Origin: an uncultured Candidatus Saccharibacteria bacterium
GTDB taxonomy: Bacteria > Patescibacteriota > Minisyncoccia > Phycocordibacterales > UBA1550
Reading direction: 5' to 3'
DNA length: 64,000 nucleotides
NCBI GenBank assembly: GCA_964457625.1
Contig: CAYWES010000001.1
Span: 17,725-81,724 of the forward strand
The position numbers and the translations under genes are program-made. The stretch's first letter is position 1; every line of letters starts with the position of its first letter. The notes beneath the pieces are model-generated. The model saw only the letters and a program-made list of their open reading frames with translations, was not told where the DNA came from and searched no databases. Positions 35,275-59,411 of the stretch are shown in pieces.

Positions 35275-37002
35275 ATGGCTTCATCTGTTGAAGAAATAAA
35301 ATCACGACTCAACATCGTAGATATTGCAGGAGAATACCTCAAACTTGAAAAAGCGGGAGGTAACTTCAAGGCACGATGTCCGTTCCACAATGAACGAACG
35401 CCGTCCTTTGTTGTTTCTTCATCTCGCCAGTCATATCATTGCTTTGGGTGTAATCGCGGAGGAGATATTATTTCTCTCGTGCAAGAAATTGAGGGTATAG
35501 ATTTTCTTGGTGCGTTGAAAATCCTTGCCGACAGAGCGGGTGTTGTTCTTACACGCGAGCACGCTGCTACGCGAGACACAGAGCGTGGTCGAGAGAGTCT
35601 CTACAAGGTTCTCGAGCTCGCAACAAAATTCTACGAAGCCGTTCTCCCCAAGTTTCCGGAAGCTTTGGTATATCTCCATAAGAGGGGCATCACGGACGAA
35701 AGTATAAAAACCTTTCGTATTGGATTTGCTCCCGATGAGTGGAGGAGCCTCTCGGACGTCCTTCTCAAGAAGAATATTCAGGAGACGCTCTCTGATCGAG
35801 CGGGGCTTATTACGCGCTCTCCGAAAGGATTTTATGATCGTTTTCGGGGGCGCATTATGTTCCCTATAGCAGACACTGCAGGGCGTATCATTGCGTTTTC
35901 AGGAAGAGTACTCAAAGACGAACCGGGAAAAACTCTTGGGACGTCATCTCAAGCAAAGTATGTGAATAGCCCTGAGACGGAAGTCTTCCATAAATCTCGA
36001 GCACTTTTTGGATTTCATCAGGCAAAAGACGCGATGCGTCGTCTGGACAGCGCGGTCTTGGTGGAAGGGCAGATTGACCTCGTTATGTCTCATCAAGCGG
36101 GAGTGACAAACACTGTTGCATCTTCCGGCACGGCGTTGACGGCAGAACATCTGGGACTCATCAAGCGCTTTACGCAAAATATTGTGCTAGCGTTTGATGC
36201 CGATGATGCAGGACTTGCTGCAGCTCACAAGGCAATTCTTCTTGCATTAGGAAGCGACATGTCAGTGCGAATTGCCGAGATTCCTCAGGGTCTCGATCCT
36301 GCAGATTTGATACAAAAGAATCCCGATCTCTGGAAGAACGCGATTACGGAGGCGCAGCCGGTTGTTGATTTTTACCTCAAGACTTTCCCTACACGCTTTA
36401 CTGACCAATCTCTTCTGCGCAAGAAGGTGTCTGAGATTATTATTCCTTTCGTGGCTGCGCTAAAGAGCTCTCTTGATCAAGGGCATTATGTAGGAAGGAT
36501 TGCAACACTCTTGGGGATACAGGAAGGACCGGTATGGGATGAGATAAAAAAGGTTGCACTTCCCCAAGAGAACATCCCTCCTGATGCTACTACTCCTTGG
36601 AAACCTCTCTCTCGGCTTGATCGACTCACGAGAAGTATTGAAGGACTTCTCTTGTGGCAGGAGGGGGTGCCGGAGACAAACGTCAGTGGTCTTGGTGAGA
36701 TGCGTAGAACGTTTGACGCCCTTCTCAAGGAACACAATATTGAACACAGTCCTCCAGACCAACACGAAGAAGAAGTCTTTGAAGCTGAGATTAGGTTCGA
36801 AGGAAATGCGAATCTTACTGAAGAACTCAAACTCCTCTTGAAGACACTTGGCGAAGAGATTTTACGGGAACGCTTTACTCGTACAATGAAAGAACTCAAG
36901 CATGCAGAAGCAGAGGGGGACATCGCCAAAGCGCAAGAGCTCCTCAAAGTATGTCAGGAAATTTCAAAAGAATTACACGCCATAACCACCAAAACATCAT
37001 GA
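35275..37002 (+). CDS. dnaG: DNA primase
   Basis: Zn ribbon [20 protein letters not shown]; TOPRIM (VEGQIDL, DADDAG). Confidence 0.9.
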
Positions 37003-38291
37003 AGAAAAAAATCATAAAAAAGATAAAGAAAGTTTCTCCTTCTTCAAAAAAGAAATCCCCAACGAAGAACGTTGCAAAAAAGACAGCAAAGAAAGTTCCC
37101 GCAAAGAAGGCTGTAAAAAAAGCTCTCCCTAAAAAGGTAGTGAAAAAGGCTTCCACAAAAAAGAAGGGATCATCTCAGATGATTATTACTAAAAAGCCTC
37201 CTGTGCGAAGCGCTAAGGCGACCCAAGAATTTGAAGAGAAAGTAATACGCCTCACCGCAAAAGGGCGCGGAAGAGGGTTTGTTACGTTCAATGAAATTCT
37301 TAAGGAATTTCCTGCTGTTGAAAATGATGTATATTTTCTGGATGAGCTGTACGAAAAACTCCACGATGGTGGTGTGGATGTTCTTGCGTCGGGGGGAATG
37401 CTTGATACAGAGCCTGAAGAACTTCTTCAAGACAAAAAGTACATGTACAAAGGAGGAGACTCTTCATATGACTCGGTGCAGATGTATCTCAAGGAAATCG
37501 GGCGTCACTCTCTCATTTCTGCTCAAGAAGAACGCGATCTCGCAAAACTTATTCAACAAGGCGACATGGAAGCAAAAAATCTCCTCGCGCGCGCAAACCT
37601 TCGTCTCGTGGTATCGATTGCAAAGAAATATGTGGGACGCAGCGCTGATCTCACCCTCCTTGACCTCATCCAGGAAGGGAACCTCGGTCTCTTTAAAGCC
37701 GTAGAGAAATTTGAATGGGAAAAAGGTTTCAAGTTTTCCACATATGCGACCTGGTGGATTCGCCAGGCGATTACACGCGCGCTTGCTGATCAATCGCGCA
37801 CCATTCGTATTCCTGTGCACATGGTAGAGACCATTTCAAAATACAAGCAGGTAGTGCGTCGCTTGAGCCAGGATCTCGGGCGTGAGCCACTCTTGGGCGA
37901 GATTGCAACCGAGATGGGACTTGATATTGAGAAGATATATACCATAAAGAATATTGACCAAGATACCGTATCTCTGGAAAAGCCGATTGGAGATGATGAT
38001 GAGAAGTCTACCCTCGGTGAATTTATCGCCGATGATAAAATTCTTTCTCCGGCTCAAGATTCCGCACAGCGAATCCTTTCGGACCAAGTGAAAGAAATTC
38101 TTGGTGACCTTTCGGAAAAGGAGCGCAAAATTCTCGAAATGCGCCATGGCCTCATTGATGGTGTTGTGCACACGCTTGAAGAAGTGGGCAAGGAGTTTGG
38201 TGTCACGCGTGAGCGTATCCGTCAGATTGAAGCAAAATCAATAGAAAAGATTCGTGCGCACGATAAGGTAGATAAGCTCCGAAACTACTAG
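36999..38291 (+). CDS. rpoD: RNA polymerase sigma-70 factor with a lysine-rich N-terminal tail
   Basis: ATG 36999 overlaps the dnaG stop (ATGA). Region 2 ([37 protein letters not shown]), region 4 ([22 protein letters not shown]). N-terminus [40 protein letters not shown]. Confidence 0.9.
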
Positions 38292-45925: not shown

Positions 45926-48829
45926 ATGAAAGCATACGACCACAAGGATCTTGAGGGAAAATGGCAAAAAATCTGGGAGGAGACGGGAGTGTATCGCACG
46001 GATGATTCTTCTGAAAAACCAAAACAATTTATTCTCGATATGTTCCCGTATCCATCAGGAGAGGGTCTTCATGTGGGGCATCCTAAGGGATATATTGCGA
46101 CTGACATCTATGCACGCATGAAGCGTATGAGCGGGTTTAATGTACTCCATCCCATGGGGTGGGATGCGTTTGGTCTCCCCGCGGAACAGTTTGCGATTAA
46201 GCACAAAGTACATCCTCGTGTGGCGGTAGAAAAAAATGTTGCTCGCTACAAAGAGCAACTCTCTGTTATTGGTCTTGATTATGATTGGGCACGCGAGATA
46301 AATACGACAGATCCTGCCTTTTATAAGTGGACGCAGTGGATTTTTTTGAAACTGTTGGAAAAAGGTCTTGCCTATGAGTCATATGAACCGATTAACTGGT
46401 GCCCCACGTGTCAAACGGGTCTTGCTAACGAAGATCTTGATGGAGGGAAGTGTGAGCGATGTGATACTCCCGTCGAGAAAAAGCCCATGCGACAATGGGT
46501 ACTCAAAATTACGGAGTACGCAGACCGCATGCTCAAAGACCTTGATCTCCTTAATTGGCCGGACTCTATCAAGGAAGCCCAACGAAATTGGATTGGGAGG
46601 AGTGAAGGAGCGGAAATAGATTTCAATTTGGTATTCAAATTGCATCCAAAACATAACGATTGGCGCGACCCAAAAGACGAAAAACCTGCGCATATTACGG
46701 TATTCACCACGCGTCCCGATACGCTTTTTGGTGCGACATATCTGGTGCTTGCCCCTGAACATCCTTGGGTAGAGGCTTTGTGGAATACCGAACACGACGA
46801 CAGTGTGGGTAACAAAAGTGAAATAGAGGCATATGTGAAGCATGCCAGGGAAAAGACCGATATAGAACGTGCTGACGCGACGAAAGAAAAAACGGGTGTA
46901 AACGTTGAAGGAGTTGTTGCTCTTAATCCCGTGACGAAAGAAGAGATTCCAATATTTGTTGCGGATTATGTGCTTGGAGGGTACGGTACGGGTGCGGTGA
47001 TGGCTGTCCCGGCACATGACGAGCGAGACTTTCTTTTTGCTCAGAAATTTAGCCTGCCTTTCAGGGAGGTTGTCGTGCCTCATAGGGTTGATTATAAAAA
47101 TCCCCCCGTATCAGAAAAAGAAGTTGTTACACGAAAGAATATTCATGGTCTCGTGCGTAATCCAAAAACAGGCAAGATACTTTGTCTCAAGTGGAAAGAA
47201 CATCCTTGGACAACCCTTGTGGTGGGAGGAGTAGAGGATGGTGAGGATATTATTGAAGCGGCGCGGAGAGAAATTCTAGAAGAGACGGGATATGCACACC
47301 TCAGTGAGGGTCGCATCTTGGGAGGAGAAGTACGTGCCGACTACTTTGCAGCACACAAAGATCAAAATAGAATCGCGTACACTAGTCTTGTTGCATTTGA
47401 TCTTCTTGATGAAGAACAGCAAGACATCTCAGCGGACGAACAGAGTAAACATGAAGTCGTTTGGCTTGATGAGAAGGACGTCACAGTGGAATTGATGACC
47501 CACGCAGAAATGGACATCTGGCTTGAAAGAATGAATGGCGCGACGGGGGCATACACTCATTCAGGTGTTCTTGTGCATTCCGCACAATTTAATGGCAAAA
47601 GTTCTGAAGAGGCAAAAAAAGAGATTACAGAGTTCGCAGGTGGTCGTTGGGTGACAAAGTATCGTCTCAAGGAGTGGGTGTTTTCACGTCAGCGCTACTG
47701 GGGTGAGCCTATCCCGGTTATTCATTGTCCGAAGGATGGTGTTGTTCCCGTTCCCGAGAAGGAACTTCCCGTGCTCCTACCTGATGTGACTTCGTACGAA
47801 CCCACAGGAACGGGGGAGTCACCTCTTGCGGCGATTTCAGATTGGGTCAACACGACATGTCCGCAATGTGGTGGTCCGGGCACGCGCGAGACCAATACGA
47901 TGCCTCAGTGGGCGGGATCATCGTGGTATTACCTTCGTTTCATTGACCCAGAAAATAATGAGGCACTCATTGATCCGAAAAAAGAACATATATGGGATCC
48001 AGTTGACCTTTATGTGGGAGGCGATCATGCGGTGCGCCATCTTATCTACGCGCGTTTTTGGCATAAGTTTTTGTTTGACATAGATGTAGTCCACACTCTT
48101 GAGCCGTTTATGAGACTTGAGTTTCTCGGTTTTATTCTTGCTGAAGATGGTCGTAAAATGAGCAAGCGATGGGGAAATGTCATTAATCCCGATGATGTGG
48201 TAAAAACCTATGGTGCTGACACGCTCCGTCTCTATGAAATGTTCATGGGACCCTTTGAGCAAACTATCGCCTGGAATACCGAGAGTATCATTGGACCACG
48301 AAGGTTCCTTGAGCGTGTATGGCGTTTACGAGAGAATGTTTCATCTTCGGTAAAAGATACCGAAACTCTCGAGACGATTCTTCATAAAACAATCAAAAAA
48401 GTAACGGATGATATTGAAGGGTTTGCCTTTAATACCGCGATTTCTTCGCTCATGGTGCTTTCGAATGAAATGGAGCGTGCCAAAGAATTTTCTCCCCAAG
48501 CCTACGAGACATTCCTGAAACTCCTTGCCCCCTTCGCTCCTCATATTACCGAAGAACTTTGGCATGAATTGGGGCACGAGGACTCAATCCACCTTTCTTC
48601 ATGGCCTACCTACGATCCTCAAAAATGCATCGCTACAGAGGTAACAATTGCCATTCAGATAAATGGGAAGGTCCGCGACACTCTTGTTGTGGCGGCAGAT
48701 ATATCCGAAGACGAAGTTCTCCGTATTGCCCTTGAGCGCCCTCTTGTGTCCAAATGGATGGAAGGGAAGAAGCCCGCAAAAACGATCTTTGTTCCCGGGA
48801 AACTTCTCAGTATTGTCTTAGAAAAATAA
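45926..48829 (+). CDS. leuS: leucyl-tRNA synthetase carrying an inserted Nudix-hydrolase-like domain
   Basis: HIGH (HVGHPKGY), Zn motif CPTCQT..CERC, editing-domain block TTRPDTLFGATYLVLAPEHP...GTGAVMAVPAHDERDF, KMSKS (KMSKRWGN). An inserted block of about 150 aa contains the canonical Nudix box GGVEDGEDIIEAARREILEETGY. Confidence 0.9.
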   Translation: MKAYDHKDLEGKWQKIWEETGVYRTDDSSEKPKQFILDMFPYPSGEGLHVGHPKGYIATDIYARMKRMSGFNVLHPMGWDAFGLPAEQFAIKHKVHPRVAVEKNVARYKEQLSVIGLDYDWAREINTTDPAFYKWTQWIFLKLLEKGLAYESYEPINWCPTCQTGLANEDLDGGKCERCDTPVEKKPMRQWVLKITEYADRMLKDLDLLNWPDSIKEAQRNWIGRSEGAEIDFNLVFKLHPKHNDWRDPKDEKPAHITVFTTRPDTLFGATYLVLAPEHPWVEALWNTEHDDSVGNKSEIEAYVKHAREKTDIERADATKEKTGVNVEGVVALNPVTKEEIPIFVADYVLGGYGTGAVMAVPAHDERDFLFAQKFSLPFREVVVPHRVDYKNPPVSEKEVVTRKNIHGLVRNPKTGKILCLKWKEHPWTTLVVGGVEDGEDIIEAARREILEETGYAHLSEGRILGGEVRADYFAAHKDQNRIAYTSLVAFDLLDEEQQDISADEQSKHEVVWLDEKDVTVELMTHAEMDIWLERMNGATGAYTHSGVLVHSAQFNGKSSEEAKKEITEFAGGRWVTKYRLKEWVFSRQRYWGEPIPVIHCPKDGVVPVPEKELPVLLPDVTSYEPTGTGESPLAAISDWVNTTCPQCGGPGTRETNTMPQWAGSSWYYLRFIDPENNEALIDPKKEHIWDPVDLYVGGDHAVRHLIYARFWHKFLFDIDVVHTLEPFMRLEFLGFILAEDGRKMSKRWGNVINPDDVVKTYGADTLRLYEMFMGPFEQTIAWNTESIIGPRRFLERVWRLRENVSSSVKDTETLETILHKTIKKVTDDIEGFAFNTAISSLMVLSNEMERAKEFSPQAYETFLKLLAPFAPHITEELWHELGHEDSIHLSSWPTYDPQKCIATEVTIAIQINGKVRDTLVVAADISEDEVLRIALERPLVSKWMEGKKPAKTIFVPGKLLSIVLEK

Positions 48830-48964
48830 GCTTTTATTTCAAGAGATTTTTGGTCTTTTGAGGTATACTACGAAACCCTTGACGCTTTAATTCTTTAATG
48901 CTAGTATGTCTTCATATAAAGGTTCTGGGTTCTCATCATTATATTAGATTATCCAAAAATAAGT

Positions 48965-49996
48965 ATGTCAGCACTTACGTTTAAACCAAAGCAGTCTGTC
49001 AAACGCTTGCTTTCGGTATTGTCTCCCCGCGCGCTTGACGTCATTACCAAGCGATATGGCTTGAAGGATGATACCAACCGTATGACCCTTGAAGGAATCG
49101 GTGCCACCTATGATATTACACGCGAGCGCGTGCGCCAGATAGAAAATTTTGCATTGGCCACCATTAAAAAGTCAGATGTCTTTAAAAAAGAGTCTGCCGT
49201 ATTCAAAGAGCTTCACGATGTCATCGTTTCCATGGGGGGTGTCGTTTGTGAAGAGGATTTTCTCATGCACCTATCCCGTGATGAGAGTACTCAGAACCAT
49301 CTTTATTTTCTTCTTGTTCTTGGAGAGGAGTTTAAACGCGAAAAAGGAGACGAACATTTTAAACATCGTTGGATCGTCGATGACAAAACATCAATGCGTG
49401 TACATGATGCGCTCCGCAAACTTTTCGAATCTCTTTCCCACGAAGATCTCGTTCCCGAAGGAGAGATGGTTGAGTTGTTTATCAACCACTTGAAGGAAGT
49501 TGCCGATGGGTACAAGAATGAGGAAATCGTGAAGCGTTGGTTGTCCCTTTCAAAGACAATTGGGAAAAATCCACTTGGTGAATGGGGCATGTCTCGCTCA
49601 CACAATGTAAACGCGCGCGGTATGAGGGACTATGCATATCTCGTGATTAAAAAACACGGTTCCCCGATGCACTTTACAGAGGTTACCAAAGCAATTACAC
49701 AGACCTTCAACAAGAAGGCTCACGTTGCCACCTGTCACAACGAACTCATCAAGGATAGCCGTTTTGTGCTCGTGGGGCGAGGTCTCTACGCACTCTCCTC
49801 ATGGGGGTATGAACGAGGAGTAGTTAAGGACGTGATTGCAAAGATTCTCAAAGAAGAAGGCCCTCTCACCAAAAAAGAAATCATTGACCGCGTCCTCAAA
49901 GAACGATACGTCAAAGAAAATACCGTGTTTGTAAATCTTCAAGACACAAAACTCTTTAAGAAATCAAAAGACAACAAATACTCACTTGCCTCATAA
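48965..49996 (+). CDS. two-HTH protein: N-terminal sigma-70 region-4-like HTH plus C-terminal HARE-HTH-like domain
   Basis: N-terminus LSPRALDVITKRYGL..TLEGIGATYDITRERVRQIENFAL (sigma r4). C-terminal part MHFTEVTKAI...DSRFVLVGRGLYALSSWGY resembles the HARE-HTH (RNA pol delta N-terminal-like) signature. Confidence 0.6.
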   Translation: MSALTFKPKQSVKRLLSVLSPRALDVITKRYGLKDDTNRMTLEGIGATYDITRERVRQIENFALATIKKSDVFKKESAVFKELHDVIVSMGGVVCEEDFLMHLSRDESTQNHLYFLLVLGEEFKREKGDEHFKHRWIVDDKTSMRVHDALRKLFESLSHEDLVPEGEMVELFINHLKEVADGYKNEEIVKRWLSLSKTIGKNPLGEWGMSRSHNVNARGMRDYAYLVIKKHGSPMHFTEVTKAITQTFNKKAHVATCHNELIKDSRFVLVGRGLYALSSWGYERGVVKDVIAKILKEEGPLTKKEIIDRVLKERYVKENTVFVNLQDTKLFKKSKDNKYSLAS

Positions 49997-50067
49997 GGGT
50001 ACATAAAAGCGCGGAAATTCCTTCCGCGCTTTTGTAGTTTTGCGCTTCTTCTTGTACAATAGAGTTC

Positions 50068-51369
50068 ATGGAATTTCTAGAGCACATAGGGCTCATCGAT
50101 CTCTATACGGGGGTCATTGGGTACCTCATTATTTTTATTAAGTGGGCGCCATTTTGGGTGCCCCTGGTACTCCTTGCGTATCTTTGGGGGTTGTGGATGC
50201 ATTATGTCCAGGCGAAGTGGCAGACTGAGGTGAAGTGGATCATGCTTGAGTTGAAGCTTCCCAAAGAGACTCATAAAGGTCCTCTTGCCATGGAGCTTGT
50301 GTTGAATGCGCTCTATCAGACAGGTTCGGGTATCTGGTATGACAAAAAAGTAAAAGGACGCGTCAAGGATAGATTTTCCCTAGAGATGGTTTCTCTGGAA
50401 GGTCAAGTAAAATTTTTTATTCGTACACCCGCCGTACACAAAAATGTAATTGAGGCTCAGCTCTATGCGCAATATCCTGACATAGAGATTTTTGAAGTTC
50501 CCGATTACACGCGCTATGTCGACTACCGAGGAAGAGAAGGAGACTGGTCGTGTGTCGGTATGGATTTTGGCCTCGGAAAGGAAGATGCCTATCCTATAAA
50601 AACGTACATCGATTATGGTCTCGATAAAGAAGGTGTCGACGAGGAATACAAAATTGACCCCCTAAGCTCTGTTATTGAGTATCTTGGATCAGTAGGAAAG
50701 GGCGAGCAAGTCTGGATTCAGATTATTGTACAGGCCGCCACGAAGGCTCACCACTATCCGCACAAAAAGGATGGGTCAATGGGGGACTGGAAGAGTGAGG
50801 GAGAAGCGTTGGTCGACAAACTTACTCAGCGCAAAGAAGAACGCGATGAAGAAGGGAAGGGCGGTCCGCGCACACAGCATATGACAAAGGGTGAGCAAGA
50901 AATTGTCGCTGCCATTGAGCGCAATATCAGCAAGTTTGGTTTTGAGTGCGGGGTCCGAGCGCTCTATGTTTGCAAACGTGATCGTTTTAATCCTTCAAAT
51001 CTCAAGGCAATCGGAGGGCTTTGGCGCGGGTTTAGTACCGCAAATCTAAATGAGTTTAAGTCTACCATTCAGACCTTCGGTGTTGATGCATGGTGGCAAG
51101 ATTATAAAGATGTTCGTATCACGAGCTATCGCAAAGCACAGTTTGAGGCATTCAAGCGTCGGGAGTTTTCATTTGAAGATCAGGTGAGATGGGTTGCAAA
51201 CATCCCCTCTGCCTCGCCAATGGTGATTACGCCGTTCAAACACCCTTTTGTATTGAGCTCTGAAGAGCTTGCAACGATATTCCATCTACCGGGAGGAGTG
51301 GTACAGACGCCAACGTTTGGCCGTCTCTCTTCACGCAAGAGCGAAGCTCCTACCAACTTGCCAATCTAA
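50068..51369 (+). CDS. hypothetical protein with N-terminal TM segment (433 aa)
   Basis: Long ORF with coherent codon usage; no recognisable motif; the ATG lies 7 nt after a TACAAT box. Confidence 0.55.
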   Translation: MEFLEHIGLIDLYTGVIGYLIIFIKWAPFWVPLVLLAYLWGLWMHYVQAKWQTEVKWIMLELKLPKETHKGPLAMELVLNALYQTGSGIWYDKKVKGRVKDRFSLEMVSLEGQVKFFIRTPAVHKNVIEAQLYAQYPDIEIFEVPDYTRYVDYRGREGDWSCVGMDFGLGKEDAYPIKTYIDYGLDKEGVDEEYKIDPLSSVIEYLGSVGKGEQVWIQIIVQAATKAHHYPHKKDGSMGDWKSEGEALVDKLTQRKEERDEEGKGGPRTQHMTKGEQEIVAAIERNISKFGFECGVRALYVCKRDRFNPSNLKAIGGLWRGFSTANLNEFKSTIQTFGVDAWWQDYKDVRITSYRKAQFEAFKRREFSFEDQVRWVANIPSASPMVITPFKHPFVLSSEELATIFHLPGGVVQTPTFGRLSSRKSEAPTNLPI

Positions 51370-53556: not shown

Positions 53557-54417
53557 ATGGTACAAAAAGATTCTCAAAATATTCCCTGGGTTATAAAGAC
53601 ATCGGGTGTCCGTGAGCAGTTTTCTGTAGCCAAGCTCCGTCGCTCACTTGAACGCTCGGGAGCAGACGAAGCGACTGTTCAGCAAATTCTTGACCATATT
53701 CTCCCGGAAGTTACTGATGGTACGAGGACCTCGCTCATTTACAAACACGCATTCGCATTACTCAAAAAGAATCTGTATCCTGCGGCAGTCCGATATAGTC
53801 TCCGCAAGGCGGTTATGGAACTCGGTCCGAGTGGGTTTCCTTTTGAAATCTATGTCTCAGAAGTTCTCCGCCGCAAAGGGTACACTGCCGAGACAGGCGT
53901 GGTGCTTCCGGGGTTCTGTGTCCTTCATGAGGTTGATATTTACCTCCGAAAAAATGACAAACATATTTTTGCCGAGTGTAAATTTCACAATCAGCAAGGG
54001 ATTAAGGTTGATATAAAAGTGGCACTCTATATTCACGCTCGATTCCTTGATCTTAAAAAAGGTCATGAATCAAAAGAGCAATCGGGAACACGGGATATCC
54101 ACGAAGGGTGGCTCATTACTAACACAAAGATGAGTGCGGATGCGATTCAATATGCAAATTGCGTGGGACTCCGCCTCCTTGCGTGGGATTATCCCGAGAA
54201 AGGAAATCTCCAAGATCTTATTTTAGAGACGGGTGTGCATCCTTTGACGTTCCTTTCTTCGCTTTCATCGCGTAACAAAACAGATCTCCTCGCCAAGGGG
54301 ATCGTTATGTGTCGAGAGCTCAAAGAGAATGAGCAAGCCCTTCGTGATATTGGATTTTCCGAAGGAAAGATAAAAGGCGTCCTCCGTGAGGCAGATCGCG
54401 TATGCCAAGAGTTTTAA
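53557..54417 (+). CDS. ATP-cone domain fused to a PD-(D/E)xK restriction-endonuclease-like (Mrr_cat-type) domain
   Basis: N-terminus VIKTSGVREQFSVAKLRRSLERSGAD.. (ATP-cone). Central FEIYVSEVLRRKGY...LHEVDIYL...AECKF (E..D..ExK nuclease core). Confidence 0.6.
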   Translation: MVQKDSQNIPWVIKTSGVREQFSVAKLRRSLERSGADEATVQQILDHILPEVTDGTRTSLIYKHAFALLKKNLYPAAVRYSLRKAVMELGPSGFPFEIYVSEVLRRKGYTAETGVVLPGFCVLHEVDIYLRKNDKHIFAECKFHNQQGIKVDIKVALYIHARFLDLKKGHESKEQSGTRDIHEGWLITNTKMSADAIQYANCVGLRLLAWDYPEKGNLQDLILETGVHPLTFLSSLSSRNKTDLLAKGIVMCRELKENEQALRDIGFSEGKIKGVLREADRVCQEF

Positions 54418-56848: not shown

Positions 56849-58030
56849 ATGGCATTTTCTTTTTCATTGCGTTCAAAACATAAAGAAAAAACTATTCTCG
56901 TCGTTGATATTGGTTCAGCGAGTGTGGGTGTTGCGCTCGTCGCTCTTTCTCCTAAAAAAAATCCCCACATCCTTCTTTCAGAGAGGGAAGAGATTCCTTC
57001 CCAACCCGAGCTTTCCGCCCCAAAACTCCGACGTGCTATGGAGGGTGCGTTGGGGCGAGCCTTGCGAACTATTGGGAAAAACCTCAGGAAGCATCATTAT
57101 TCTCTCCCTGCGCGTGTTGTGTGTACGCTTTCCGCGCCGTGGTCTCTCGAAAAAACACGCCACATTATTACCGAATCCGAATCCCTCTTTGTGGTCACAG
57201 AACGCATGGTCGATGATATCTTAGAAGTAGATATGGGGAATCTCAAACAGGAGCTTTCCGGTACTCTGCCCACAGAAGATATTTTTGTCTTTGAGCGCCG
57301 CGTGTTGGGAGCTTCGCTTGATGGGTATCAAGTGAGCTCTCCCTTTGGACGCAAAACAACACGCCTCGACACCATAGCGCTTTTCGGAGTGTCTTCGAAA
57401 AAGGTTATGGATGGGATTGTCTCTTATATTGGGAGAGTATTTCATACGAAACAGATAGAGTGGAGCTCTTTTTCTCTTGCCTCGTTCAGTGCGATACGAG
57501 ATATTTTTCCTCACGAAAAAGATTTTCTTCTCCTCGATATTACAGGGGAGGCGACCACGGTGTCTCTTATCAAAAACGACCTTTTAGACCAAAGCCTCTT
57601 CTTCCCTCGGGGTAGAAATACGCTTATTCGAGAACTTTCTCTAGGAATGAATGTTCCCCATGAAGCGGCTGGAAGCCTGTTCAAAATGTATCTTCGTGGT
57701 ACACTAAATGAGCAGAAGCATGAACAGGTAAAGCGTATTTTGAAAGAATCGAGCCAAGGGTGGGTGAGTCGTCTTGAAAAGACGCTCACGGCGCTCCACA
57801 AGGAAGGAAACCTTCCCCACACGGTGTTTTTTAACGCAGACAAAGAAGTAGCTCAGTTCTACCATGAGATATTGAGCGAAATTGGTACGGGGTTTGGGGG
57901 AGCGTTCTTTTTCCCTCGATATGTGGACCCACAAGTGTTTCGAGGATTTATAACATCAGAAGAAGGTATATCTCGCGATCCATTTTTGGTCATCGGAGCA
58001 TTATTAGCAAGTAAATTGAATACACAATAA
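56849..58030 (+). CDS. actin-fold (ASKHA) ATPase-like protein, FtsA/PilM-like
   Basis: Phosphate-1-like ILVVDIGSASVGVAL and phosphate-2-like LLLDITGEATTVSLI; C-terminal amphipathic tail. Confidence 0.5.
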   Translation: MAFSFSLRSKHKEKTILVVDIGSASVGVALVALSPKKNPHILLSEREEIPSQPELSAPKLRRAMEGALGRALRTIGKNLRKHHYSLPARVVCTLSAPWSLEKTRHIITESESLFVVTERMVDDILEVDMGNLKQELSGTLPTEDIFVFERRVLGASLDGYQVSSPFGRKTTRLDTIALFGVSSKKVMDGIVSYIGRVFHTKQIEWSSFSLASFSAIRDIFPHEKDFLLLDITGEATTVSLIKNDLLDQSLFFPRGRNTLIRELSLGMNVPHEAAGSLFKMYLRGTLNEQKHEQVKRILKESSQGWVSRLEKTLTALHKEGNLPHTVFFNADKEVAQFYHEILSEIGTGFGGAFFFPRYVDPQVFRGFITSEEGISRDPFLVIGALLASKLNTQ

Positions 58031-58037
58031 TATCACC

Positions 58038-59411
58038 ATGGATAACATCAAGCGAAAAGCAACAGCACATAAAAGTGCCCCTAGCCCTGAACACAGCACG
58101 ACACATCATCGTGTACCCCACAAAAATGATTCGCATGACGGTGCAGACAAGGTTTCTCCGCATGATCGTATTCAAAGCAGCCCCTTTTTCCAAAAGAGCT
58201 CCTCTCCTGTTTCCGTCGTTCCTCCTGTTCGTCACCATCGCGCAAAAAAGAAGAAAATCCCCAGCGGTAAAGTATTCTTCTTCTTTGTCCTCCTCGCTCT
58301 CTTGTTTGCAGGGGTATTTTTTGGGGCAGGGCGTTTTGCAAGCGCTACGGTCCGCCTCACGCCAGTCGTCGAGACTGCTCCTCTCGATAAAAATATAAGC
58401 GCTTCTCTTGAAGGAGAGGGTAGCGGACTTGCATTTCATGTAATGACGTTCTCGGAGGAGAAGATTAAAGATGTTCCTGCTACCATTGAACAAGATGTAC
58501 AACGGAAGGCATCAGGAACGATTGTCATCTACAATGCTCACAACGGAAACGCACAGCGACTTATCGTAAATACGCGCTTTGAAACTCCTGATGGAAAAAT
58601 ATTCCGTATCGGTGAATCTGTCGAGGTGCCGGGCGCAGTCATGTCCGAAGGCAAGGTGGTGACACCGGGCGCTCTTGAGGTGACGGTATATGCAGATGCT
58701 CCCGGAAGAGAATACAACATCGGTCTCTCAGACTTTACCATTCCTGGATTTAAGGGGGATCCGCGCTACACAACCTTCACCGCTCGCTCCAAGAGCGACA
58801 GTCCCATGACAGGAGGTTTTTCTGGGGTGGTCAAAGTTCCTTCTCCTGAAGCTATCGCTATCGCACAGAGAGAGTTAAAGGACGATCTTAAAATCCTCGC
58901 AATCGAGAAAGCTCGCGCGCAAGTTCCTGAAGGGACAATATTTTTCCCGGGAAGCGTACTCCTTAAATACGAAGAGATTCCTGTTGATTTCACAAACAAC
59001 GATAGAGCAGCTGTGGGTATCCGCGCAACAACATCCGTCTTTTTCTTCAATTCCAAAGACTTGGTAAGTATGTTGGCGTCCGAAGCACTTCCGCACTATG
59101 ACCCAAGTGCTTCTTTCTCGCTCCTTAAAAGAGAAAACCTTACGTTCACATTTCTTGATTCTGTTGAGCAGGTAGTCGTTGAAGATATCGACGATATTCG
59201 CTTCAACATACGAGGGGAGGGCGTATTTATAGGGCTCCTCAACGTCGAAGAAATGAGTAATACTCTTGCAGGGAAACAAAAAACCGCATTTGCTGAAATC
59301 GTCAACACCGACCCTCTCATCGAAAAAGCTGAACTCTCCATATTCCCTCCATGGCGCTCTGCGTTCCCTGAAGATTCTCGCAAAATTGCCATTGATATTA
59401 TTAATCAGTAG
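58038..59411 (+). CDS. bitopic membrane protein: basic His/Ser-rich cytoplasmic N-terminus, one TM, large external domain
   Basis: 457 aa; TM VFFFFVLLALLFAGVFFG; no known motif; immediately follows the actin-like gene. Confidence 0.5.
   Translation: MDNIKRKATAHKSAPSPEHSTTHHRVPHKNDSHDGADKVSPHDRIQSSPFFQKSSSPVSVVPPVRHHRAKKKKIPSGKVFFFFVLLALLFAGVFFGAGRFASATVRLTPVVETAPLDKNISASLEGEGSGLAFHVMTFSEEKIKDVPATIEQDVQRKASGTIVIYNAHNGNAQRLIVNTRFETPDGKIFRIGESVEVPGAVMSEGKVVTPGALEVTVYADAPGREYNIGLSDFTIPGFKGDPRYTTFTARSKSDSPMTGGFSGVVKVPSPEAIAIAQRELKDDLKILAIEKARAQVPEGTIFFPGSVLLKYEEIPVDFTNNDRAAVGIRATTSVFFFNSKDLVSMLASEALPHYDPSASFSLLKRENLTFTFLDSVEQVVVEDIDDIRFNIRGEGVFIGLLNVEEMSNTLAGKQKTAFAEIVNTDPLIEKAELSIFPPWRSAFPEDSRKIAIDIINQ

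Follow-up and report, generated by a model that had tools for sequence, protein, structure and literature searches.

In a 64,000-nucleotide stretch of DNA from an uncultured Candidatus Saccharibacteria bacterium (contig CAYWES010000001.1 of assembly GCA_964457625.1; hereafter the window), we analyzed an open reading frame (ORF) on the forward strand at 48965-49996, which runs from ATG to TAA and encodes a protein of 343 amino acids (aa). The protein is built of a sigma-70 region 4 helix-turn-helix (HTH) module, here called sigma-4, and a four-fold internal repeat of HARE-type winged helices, and it belongs to a family with this single, fixed architecture across the Patescibacteria. Considering its near-invariant base-reading residues and three basic HTH modules, we tentatively propose that it acts as a regulator by binding DNA at -35-like hexamers in a sequence-specific manner (with a probability of roughly 45%). 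In addition, its gene is linked across classes to a gene for a DUF8128 protein, which is related to coupling ATPases, and a probable counterpart in the one member of the phylum with transposon sequencing data examined here was scored as essential.

Domain architecture

Pfam scans matched both ends of the protein above the gathering cut-offs, with Sigma70_r4 at aa 15-69 (E 1.2e-12, 47.6 bits, cut-off 24.1) and HARE-HTH (PF05066) at aa 220-280 (E 2.2e-11, 44.4 bits, cut-off 25.9). This bears out the sigma region 4 that the original prediction for this ORF had placed at the N-terminus. The HARE-HTH domain that it had placed at the C-terminus is also present, but not in that position, as another winged helix of 60 aa (aa 283-343) follows. 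An alpha C-terminal domain (alpha-CTD) was not found in the Pfam scan.

The AlphaFold2 (AF2) model of the protein, built on 126 diverse family members, had a pLDDT of 96.3 and a pTM of 0.88, with no segment below a pLDDT of 50. It consists of a four-helix sigma-4 module (aa 8-70; 48986-49174, on the forward strand like all modules below), whose recognition helix is TLEGIGATYDITRERVRQIE, and then four winged-helix units. The first, WH1 (aa 71-138; 49175-49378), is a degenerate, acidic and poorly conserved winged helix (H-E-H-H-E-E in the model, net charge -5), and WH2 (aa 139-215; 49379-49609) is likewise degenerate, as identified using AF2 and hhalign. The HARE-HTH proper (aa 216-282; 49610-49810) is basic and the most conserved stretch (consensus QTVHNELIKDxRFVLVGRGxYALxEWGY), with N259, L261, G271, G273 and Y275 invariant. 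It belongs to the HARE-HTH superfamily both by its profile score, which is above gathering, and by its winged-helix fold (H-H-H-E-E at aa 220-277 in the model). Last, WH4 (aa 283-343; 49811-49993) is a basic winged helix and HARE paralogue (net charge +5), with weak Pfam matches to the winged-helix families DUF3320, DUF6958 and Penicillinase_R.

For comparison among the modules, the family alignment was cut into its modules, which were compared profile against profile using hhalign. HARE matched WH4 (93.5%, E 2.4e-7), WH2 matched WH4 (92%, E 6.8e-7) and WH1 matched WH2 (86%, E 4.7e-6), with lower values for WH2 against HARE (63.5%, E 6.8e-5) and for WH1 against WH4 (54%, E 1.3e-4); the sigma-4 module was unrelated to any of the four. 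From this mutual similarity, the middle of the protein consists of two degenerate HARE-like repeats. The middle had earlier been described as about 190 unassigned residues; it is about 145 aa long (aa 71-215) and is made of these two winged helices. All four HARE-type units probably arose by internal duplication. Conservation across the family peaks in the sigma-4.2 helix (consensus TLExIGxxYGITRERVRQIE), the HARE module and WH4, while WH1 and WH2 vary in sequence. The median net charge in the family is +5 each for sigma-4, HARE and WH4, and about -1 to -2 for WH1 and WH2. Structure comparison found no solved protein with the complete arrangement of sigma-4 and four winged helices, sequence matches in the PDB were exclusively to sigma domain 4, and no paralogue of the middle or C-terminal part of the protein was found elsewhere in the 64-kb window.

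The closest solved relative of the HARE module is the delta subunit (RpoE) of RNA polymerase (RNAP) in Firmicutes; the nearest solved sequence is that of Staphylococcus aureus delta (8x6g_E, E 0.019), and both proteins have the winged helix with its D-RF-(V/L)-x-G-x-W-L signature. Delta, however, carries its HARE-HTH at the N-terminus, followed by a long acidic disordered tail, whereas here the module (aa 216-282) is followed by a folded, basic winged helix. The protein also differs in having four HARE-like repeats instead of one and an added sigma-4 domain, and in coming from a different phylum. Against the NCBIfam model for delta (TIGR04567), it scored 31.6 bits, below the cut-off of 42. With this score, no acidic tail and a HARE domain that is one of four repeats, we rejected it as a delta orthologue, and the original suggestion of a delta-like factor is unsupported as far as family membership is concerned.

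Family and distribution

The family was collected by searching aa 71-343, with the sigma-4 module left out, against 1.84 billion cluster representatives. This yielded 1,217 clusters (at 50% identity) at E<=1e-3 and 447 at E<=1e-30, so that the family comprises at least 447 clusters at 50% identity. Nearly all matching proteins are 320-390 aa long, with the match beginning near residue 70-90, and among the 126 members scanned, 125 contain Sigma70_r4 and 121 contain HARE-HTH. All labelled members are Patescibacteria, including Yonathbacteria, Nomura-, Kaiser-, Campbell-, Doudna-, Falkow- and Peregrinibacteria, Microgenomates and Saccharimonadales; the labels of divergent representatives contributed only Campbellbacteria to this list. 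The closest relatives of the window protein (up to 85% identity) are from Yonathbacteria, while the Saccharimonadales member at locus L161 is 34% identical to it over aa 22-342 (E 1e-53). The window protein itself aligns at 100% query coverage to named members of the family, for which NCBI uses 'sigma factor-like helix-turn-helix DNA-binding protein', and it has the family's features throughout: a full-length collinear match, a length in the range of ~340-360 aa, an N-terminal Sigma70_r4 and a HARE-HTH near aa 220-280. Other members go by inconsistent names, such as 'RNA polymerase sigma factor RpoS', 'DNA-directed RNA polymerase delta subunit', 'DNA-binding phage protein' and, in a further mis-annotation, 'DCC family thiol-disulfide oxidoreductase YuxK'.

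Sigma region 4 outside a sigma factor

The region 4 HTH of this protein derives from a primary (group 1) sigma factor. It has the same fold as region 4 of RpoD/SigA, is 36-51% identical to solved SigA domain 4, and has an identical TRER(V/I)RQIE helix. Compared to region 4 of the RpoD encoded in the window itself, it is 38% identical and has the same recognition helix.

We compared the residues with those that contact the -35 element in E. coli sigma-70. T583, R584, E585, R586, R588 and Q589 (PDB 1KU7 and suppressor genetics) are the equivalents of T52, R53, E54, R55, R57 and Q58, and the further contacts R562, T572 and L573 correspond to R30, T41 and L42. All nine positions are at least 90% conserved among the 126 family sequences (32-53% identity to the window protein), and the -35-reading helix TRERVRQIE is near-invariant across the family. 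The positions equivalent to K593, R596, K597 and R599, through which sigma-70 contacts activators, are not conserved.

Unlike in RpoD/SigA, where region 4 is C-terminal, the module is N-terminal here, and regions 1.2, 2 and 3 are absent. Pfam and NCBIfam scans (E<=10) gave no match to Sigma70_r2 or r3, so that of the marks of the sigma-70 family the protein has the region 4 HTH and lacks region 2; in NCBIfam, it matches only the last ~60 positions (the region 4 end) of the RpoD, RpoS and MzaA models. Without regions 1.2, 2 and 3, neither binding to core RNAP in the manner of a sigma factor nor melting of the -10 element is possible. In addition, a complete RpoD is encoded at 36951-38291, directly after dnaG, with regions 1.1, 1.2, 2, 3 and 4 identified by the same tool. 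Considering this RpoD and the lack of regions 2 and 3, the protein is not a sigma factor, in agreement with the original prediction, which had noted the lack of region 2 motifs.

Conserved linkage to DUF8128 and a coupling protein-like ATPase

The gene starts 135 bp after leuS (45926-48829). Their adjacency, which had been pointed out from the start, is a feature of close relatives: of 54 loci in which the upstream sequence was long enough, 40 show it, and these all belong to the same class as the window. In other lineages, typA, secD-secF or topA takes the place of leuS. As the upstream gene changes with lineage, leuS was rejected as a functional partner.

The downstream side, which the original prediction did not mention, is far more constant. 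Among the 75 loci with at least 1.5 kb of downstream sequence, 72 have a DUF8128 (PF26449) gene as the next gene. In the window it lies at 50068-51369 on the forward strand and encodes 433 aa, with an N-terminal transmembrane hairpin and a fold like that of the VirB4 N-terminal domain. The pairing also holds in 8/9 distant loci (33-40% identity) in which the other flanks differ. In distant classes, secDF lies upstream of the pair and an ATPase downstream, such that DUF8128 is followed by a P-loop ATPase of ~600 aa with TrwB_AAD_bind, DUF87, TraG-D_C and a treble-clef zinc finger. In the Saccharimonadales locus L161 (9014-11674), the two are fused in one 886-aa protein, in which aa 25-384 match the DUF8128 protein of the window (E 4e-33) and aa 393-833 correspond to the ATPase (E 1e-141). 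One base is shared by the start codon of this fused gene and the stop codon of the sigma-4/HARE gene. The phage protein family phrog_5156 also covers both halves. The fused form together with phrog_5156 indicates that DUF8128 is the detached N-terminal half of an ATPase like VirB4 or the type IV coupling proteins (T4CPs).

This ATPase thus comes in three forms: fused in Saccharimonadales (886 aa, or 921 aa in Ca. Southlakia epibionticum), split into two adjacent genes in several other classes (L006-L011, L043 and L139), and with the DUF8128 half alone in the lineage of the window, where DUF8128 adjoins the sigma-4/HARE gene and mltG and mnmA come next. No copy of the ATPase half was found in the 64-kb window. 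A recent survey counted 5,713 VirD4-like T4CPs in 2,918 Patescibacteria genomes, of which only 148 were near virB4, and raised possible exaptation (PMC12102498). The fused, split and DUF8128-only forms may explain these 'orphan T4CPs'.

The C-terminal ~35 residues of the DUF8128 protein in the window (aa 396-433; 51253-51366), ELATIFHLPGGVVQTPTFGRLSSRKSEAPTNLPI, contain many invariant columns and are predicted to be disordered (pLDDT ~37). This tail resembles a conserved docking peptide, whose partner could be the detached ATPase half or the sigma-4/HARE protein.

The signals around the two genes were also examined. A promoter-like site precedes the sigma-4/HARE gene at 48879-48907 on the forward strand (TTGACG, 17 nt, TAGTAT, with a TG preceding the -10 hexamer). 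It came from a consensus scan and is a pattern match only, as such sites are not above shuffle expectation in this region. Right after the stop codon is a terminator-like hairpin (50005-50041, forward strand; GCGCGGAA-ATTCC-TTCCGCGC followed by a T-run; RNAfold -20.7 kcal/mol), and an equivalent lies between the two genes in 37/84 related loci (44%), so the pair is not always a simple operon. Just past the hairpin, a TG-n-TACAAT extended -10-like motif (50053-60) ends within only 7 nt of the start codon (ATG, 50068) of the DUF8128 gene, which would make the DUF8128 transcript nearly leaderless. A TG-extended -10 is also part of the putative promoter of the sigma-4/HARE gene itself.

A probable, essential counterpart in Ca. 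Southlakia epibionticum

The probable counterpart of the window protein in Ca. Southlakia epibionticum is SEML1_0294, considering its length, domain positions and synteny and the link through L161 (34% identity). It is a 1050-bp gene encoding 349 aa, named 'RpoS' by PROKKA, with PF04545 at aa 27-72, PF05066 at aa 225-283 and then three 'winged' domains, and it was flagged as both a core and a Patescibacteria-enriched family (Wang et al. 2023, PMC10633639, Tables S1/S2). In the transposon sequencing (Tn-seq) data of the same study, SEML1_0294 was called essential at each of the three time points (1, 1 and 2 insertions recovered, compared to 24 in the input DNA), and the adjacent SEML1_0293, a T4CP-like ATPase of 921 aa, was non-essential (87-120 insertions). 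The main text of that paper discusses neither gene (PMC10633639). SEML1_0294 lies between topA and the ATPase gene, directly upstream of the latter. This matches the Saccharimonadia loci L013 and L161, where the order is dprA, topA, the sigma-4/HARE gene and DUF8128/T4CP. The partner ATPase is fused in S. epibionticum, whereas it is split in the lineage of the window, with only the DUF8128 half adjacent. An essential gene beside a dispensable ATPase is what one would expect if the protein were a global regulator, or if it repressed a harmful product.

Proposed function and alternative explanations

The proposal of a DNA-binding regulator draws on the architecture, conservation, synteny and invariance of the -35-reading residues observed here, and on the published essentiality data. 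The conserved base-contacting side chains, along with three basic HTH modules, suggest sequence-specific binding at TTGACA-type hexamers; we infer DNA binding, hexamer specificity and a regulatory role. In the mechanism we envisage, the sigma-4.2 recognition helix would read a -35-like (TTGACA-type) hexamer, the basic HARE and WH4 modules would hold the flanking DNA, and WH1 and WH2 would provide spacing or a scaffold. By binding at promoters that depend on a -35 element, the protein would occlude or modulate RpoD, and one of its regulatory targets could be the adjacent DUF8128/T4CP-like ATPase gene, which is syntenic phylum-wide.

Several points weigh against this proposal. First, the HARE-HTH of delta binds RNAP rather than DNA, so the basic surface of the HARE module is no proof of DNA binding. 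Second, sigma region 4 also binds the beta-flap, and the hydrophobic residues for flap contact are retained here, so the conservation of region 4 cannot separate DNA reading from RNAP binding. Third, a strong hairpin stands between the gene and DUF8128 in 44% of loci, so not every pair can be co-regulated as an operon would be. Fourth, the orthology of SEML1_0294 was drawn from annotation, architecture and synteny rather than from direct alignment of that sequence.

An alternative that we consider doubtful takes up the original suggestion of an RNAP-associated regulator, namely that the protein is a general factor bound to RNAP, with sigma-4 docked on the beta-flap tip and HARE docked on beta-prime like the N-terminal domain of delta. 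It would then be a Patescibacteria-specific, essential accessory subunit that alters initiation or recycling. This would fit a sigma-4 of the primary-sigma type (the best NCBIfam matches are RpoD models) in which the hydrophobic positions equivalent to F563, I565 and L598 of sigma-70 are kept (family consensus RfGl ... l..l), as well as a probable counterpart that is essential and, like the transcription machinery, in a 'core' family. However, no gene-neighbourhood link to RNAP genes was found in the loci examined: there is no conserved neighbourhood with rpoA, rpoB, rpoC or rpoD, and the flanks differ between classes. In the window, rpoBC are 14 kb away (probable rpoB and rpoC at 28-35 kb, as judged by ORF size and gene order). 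The differences from delta given above (the score below cut-off, the missing acidic tail and the four repeats) also speak against it, the intact region 4 of RpoD would compete for the flap, and flap binding does not need the invariant base-contacting R53, E54 and Q58. We also considered mimicry of the flap tip by the helix after sigma-4, as hinted at by long Foldseek alignments to chimeras of sigma-4 and flap tip, but the TM scores lent it no support, as they did not rise with alignment length.

It appears unlikely that the protein is instead the DNA-recognition or loading subunit of DUF8128 and the T4CP-like ATPase, the pair being an orphan, chromosomal, membrane-anchored DNA motor. By analogy, it might then act as TraM or PcfF do for coupling proteins, or as the winged-helix gamma domain does for FtsK. 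The adjacency in 72/75 loci across classes accords with such a role, and in Saccharimonadales the stop codon overlaps the start codon of the fused 886-aa DUF8128-ATPase, which suggests co-translation. The domains of the ATPase (TrwB_AAD_bind, TraG-D_C and DUF87, with a zinc finger), the likeness of DUF8128 to the VirB4 N-terminal domain, and the many VirD4-like T4CPs away from virB4, with their possible exaptation (PMC12102498), point the same way. Against this, the S. epibionticum ATPase is dispensable while SEML1_0294 is essential, so being an adaptor for the ATPase cannot be the only role of the protein. The terminator-like hairpin between the two genes in 37/84 loci also counts against it, as does the lineage of the window, where the ATPase half is not adjacent to the pair and was not found in the 64-kb window. 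The likeness to TraM, TrwA and PcfF, which serve T4CPs, and to FtsK gamma, which reads KOPS, bears on this alternative only and consists of an HTH or winged-helix protein beside a motor of the HerA/FtsK superfamily. These proteins are ribbon-helix-helix or single winged-helix proteins with no sequence relationship to the sigma-4/HARE family, and, unlike for such accessory factors of coupling ATPases, essentiality is here uncoupled from the ATPase.

A more far-reaching reading seems quite unlikely. In it, a phylum-specific, essential transcription or chromosome factor would reuse the -35-reading domain of the primary sigma factor outside a sigma factor. As a trans-acting module, it might share or compete with RpoD for the -35 element and the beta-flap, and this would be a new layer of promoter control where regulators are nearly absent. 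Alternatively, it might direct DUF8128 and the T4CP ATPase, as an exapted membrane ATPase of conjugative origin, to promoter-like hexamers of the chromosome.

That the gene encodes an alternative sigma factor, or is a truncated or decayed sigma gene, is highly improbable: there is a Sigma70_r4 match, and automatic annotations name relatives RpoS (including the PROKKA label of the Southlakia counterpart) or 'sigma factor-like', but region 4 is N-terminal, regions 2 (core binding and -10 recognition) and 3 are absent, RpoD is complete at 36951-38291, and hundreds of clusters keep the full-length architecture, which shows that the gene is not decayed. Two further candidates were rejected. MzaA, the sigma factor of the MZA anti-phage system, is matched by aa 9-70 only, at the last 60 positions of its model (55 bits compared to a cut-off of 800), with the same outcome in PADLOC. 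A component of a defence system or phage was likewise rejected, as matches in PADLOC and PHROGs were confined to the generic sigma-4 part; there was also no sign of a mobile-element context.

Novelty and implications

We found no functional description of this family in the literature, and databases list it under generic or wrong names. Literature searches on HARE-HTH in the Candidate Phyla Radiation (CPR) and on DUF8128 likewise yielded nothing, and neither sigma factors nor transcription factors come up in a PNAS perspective on Patescibacteria. Aravind and Iyer (2012, Cell Cycle 11:119) reportedly noted HARE-HTH together with sigma-derived HTH modules in bacteria, in proteins with traits of both the RNAP alpha subunit and sigma factors; their paper is not known to cover the four-fold HARE repeat, the distribution across Patescibacteria, the link to T4CP/DUF8128 or the essentiality. 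What was already known is that the family counts as Patescibacteria-enriched core and was scored essential. As far as can be told, the four-fold HARE repeat, the near-invariant -35-reading helix and the linkage, throughout the phylum, to a DUF8128/T4CP-like ATPase in split or fused form are new here.

Patescibacteria account for a large share of bacterial diversity and have tiny genomes with very few recognisable regulators. Most lineage-specific essential genes of Patescibacteria, this family among them, are without an assigned function. The family is built from parts that are biochemically well understood, and its sigma-4 recognition helix supplies an explicit DNA motif, making it a tractable entry into the transcription or chromosome biology of the phylum. 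It also offers an initial lead to the function of the thousands of 'orphan' T4CP-like ATPases left unexplained by a recent survey, which the linkage described here concerns. In addition, recurrent mis-annotations as RpoS, RNAP delta subunit or phage DNA-binding protein are corrected.

Other features of the window

Several other features were observed in the window. LeuS contains a NUDIX hydrolase domain (PF00293, E 1.4e-12) at aa 405-529 (47138-47512), just past the editing domain. This insertion varies with lineage: among 41 related loci in which leuS covers the site, 19 have it and the others lack it. The ORF at 53557-54417 encodes 286 aa, with weak matches at both ends (ATP-cone/NrdR-like at the N-terminus and AF1548-like at the C-terminus), and it is conserved at the same position in locus L004. 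Two ORFs lie between alaS and the block of ribosomal protein genes and rpoA: 56849-58030 (393 aa), without a Pfam match, and 58038-59411 (457 aa), with only a sub-threshold match to the GlxA beta-barrel. Last, dnaG (35275-37002) and rpoD (36951-38291) overlap by ~50 nt as mechanically called, and the true start of rpoD may be further downstream; the dnaG-rpoD order is also found in S. epibionticum (SEML1_0062 and SEML1_0063).

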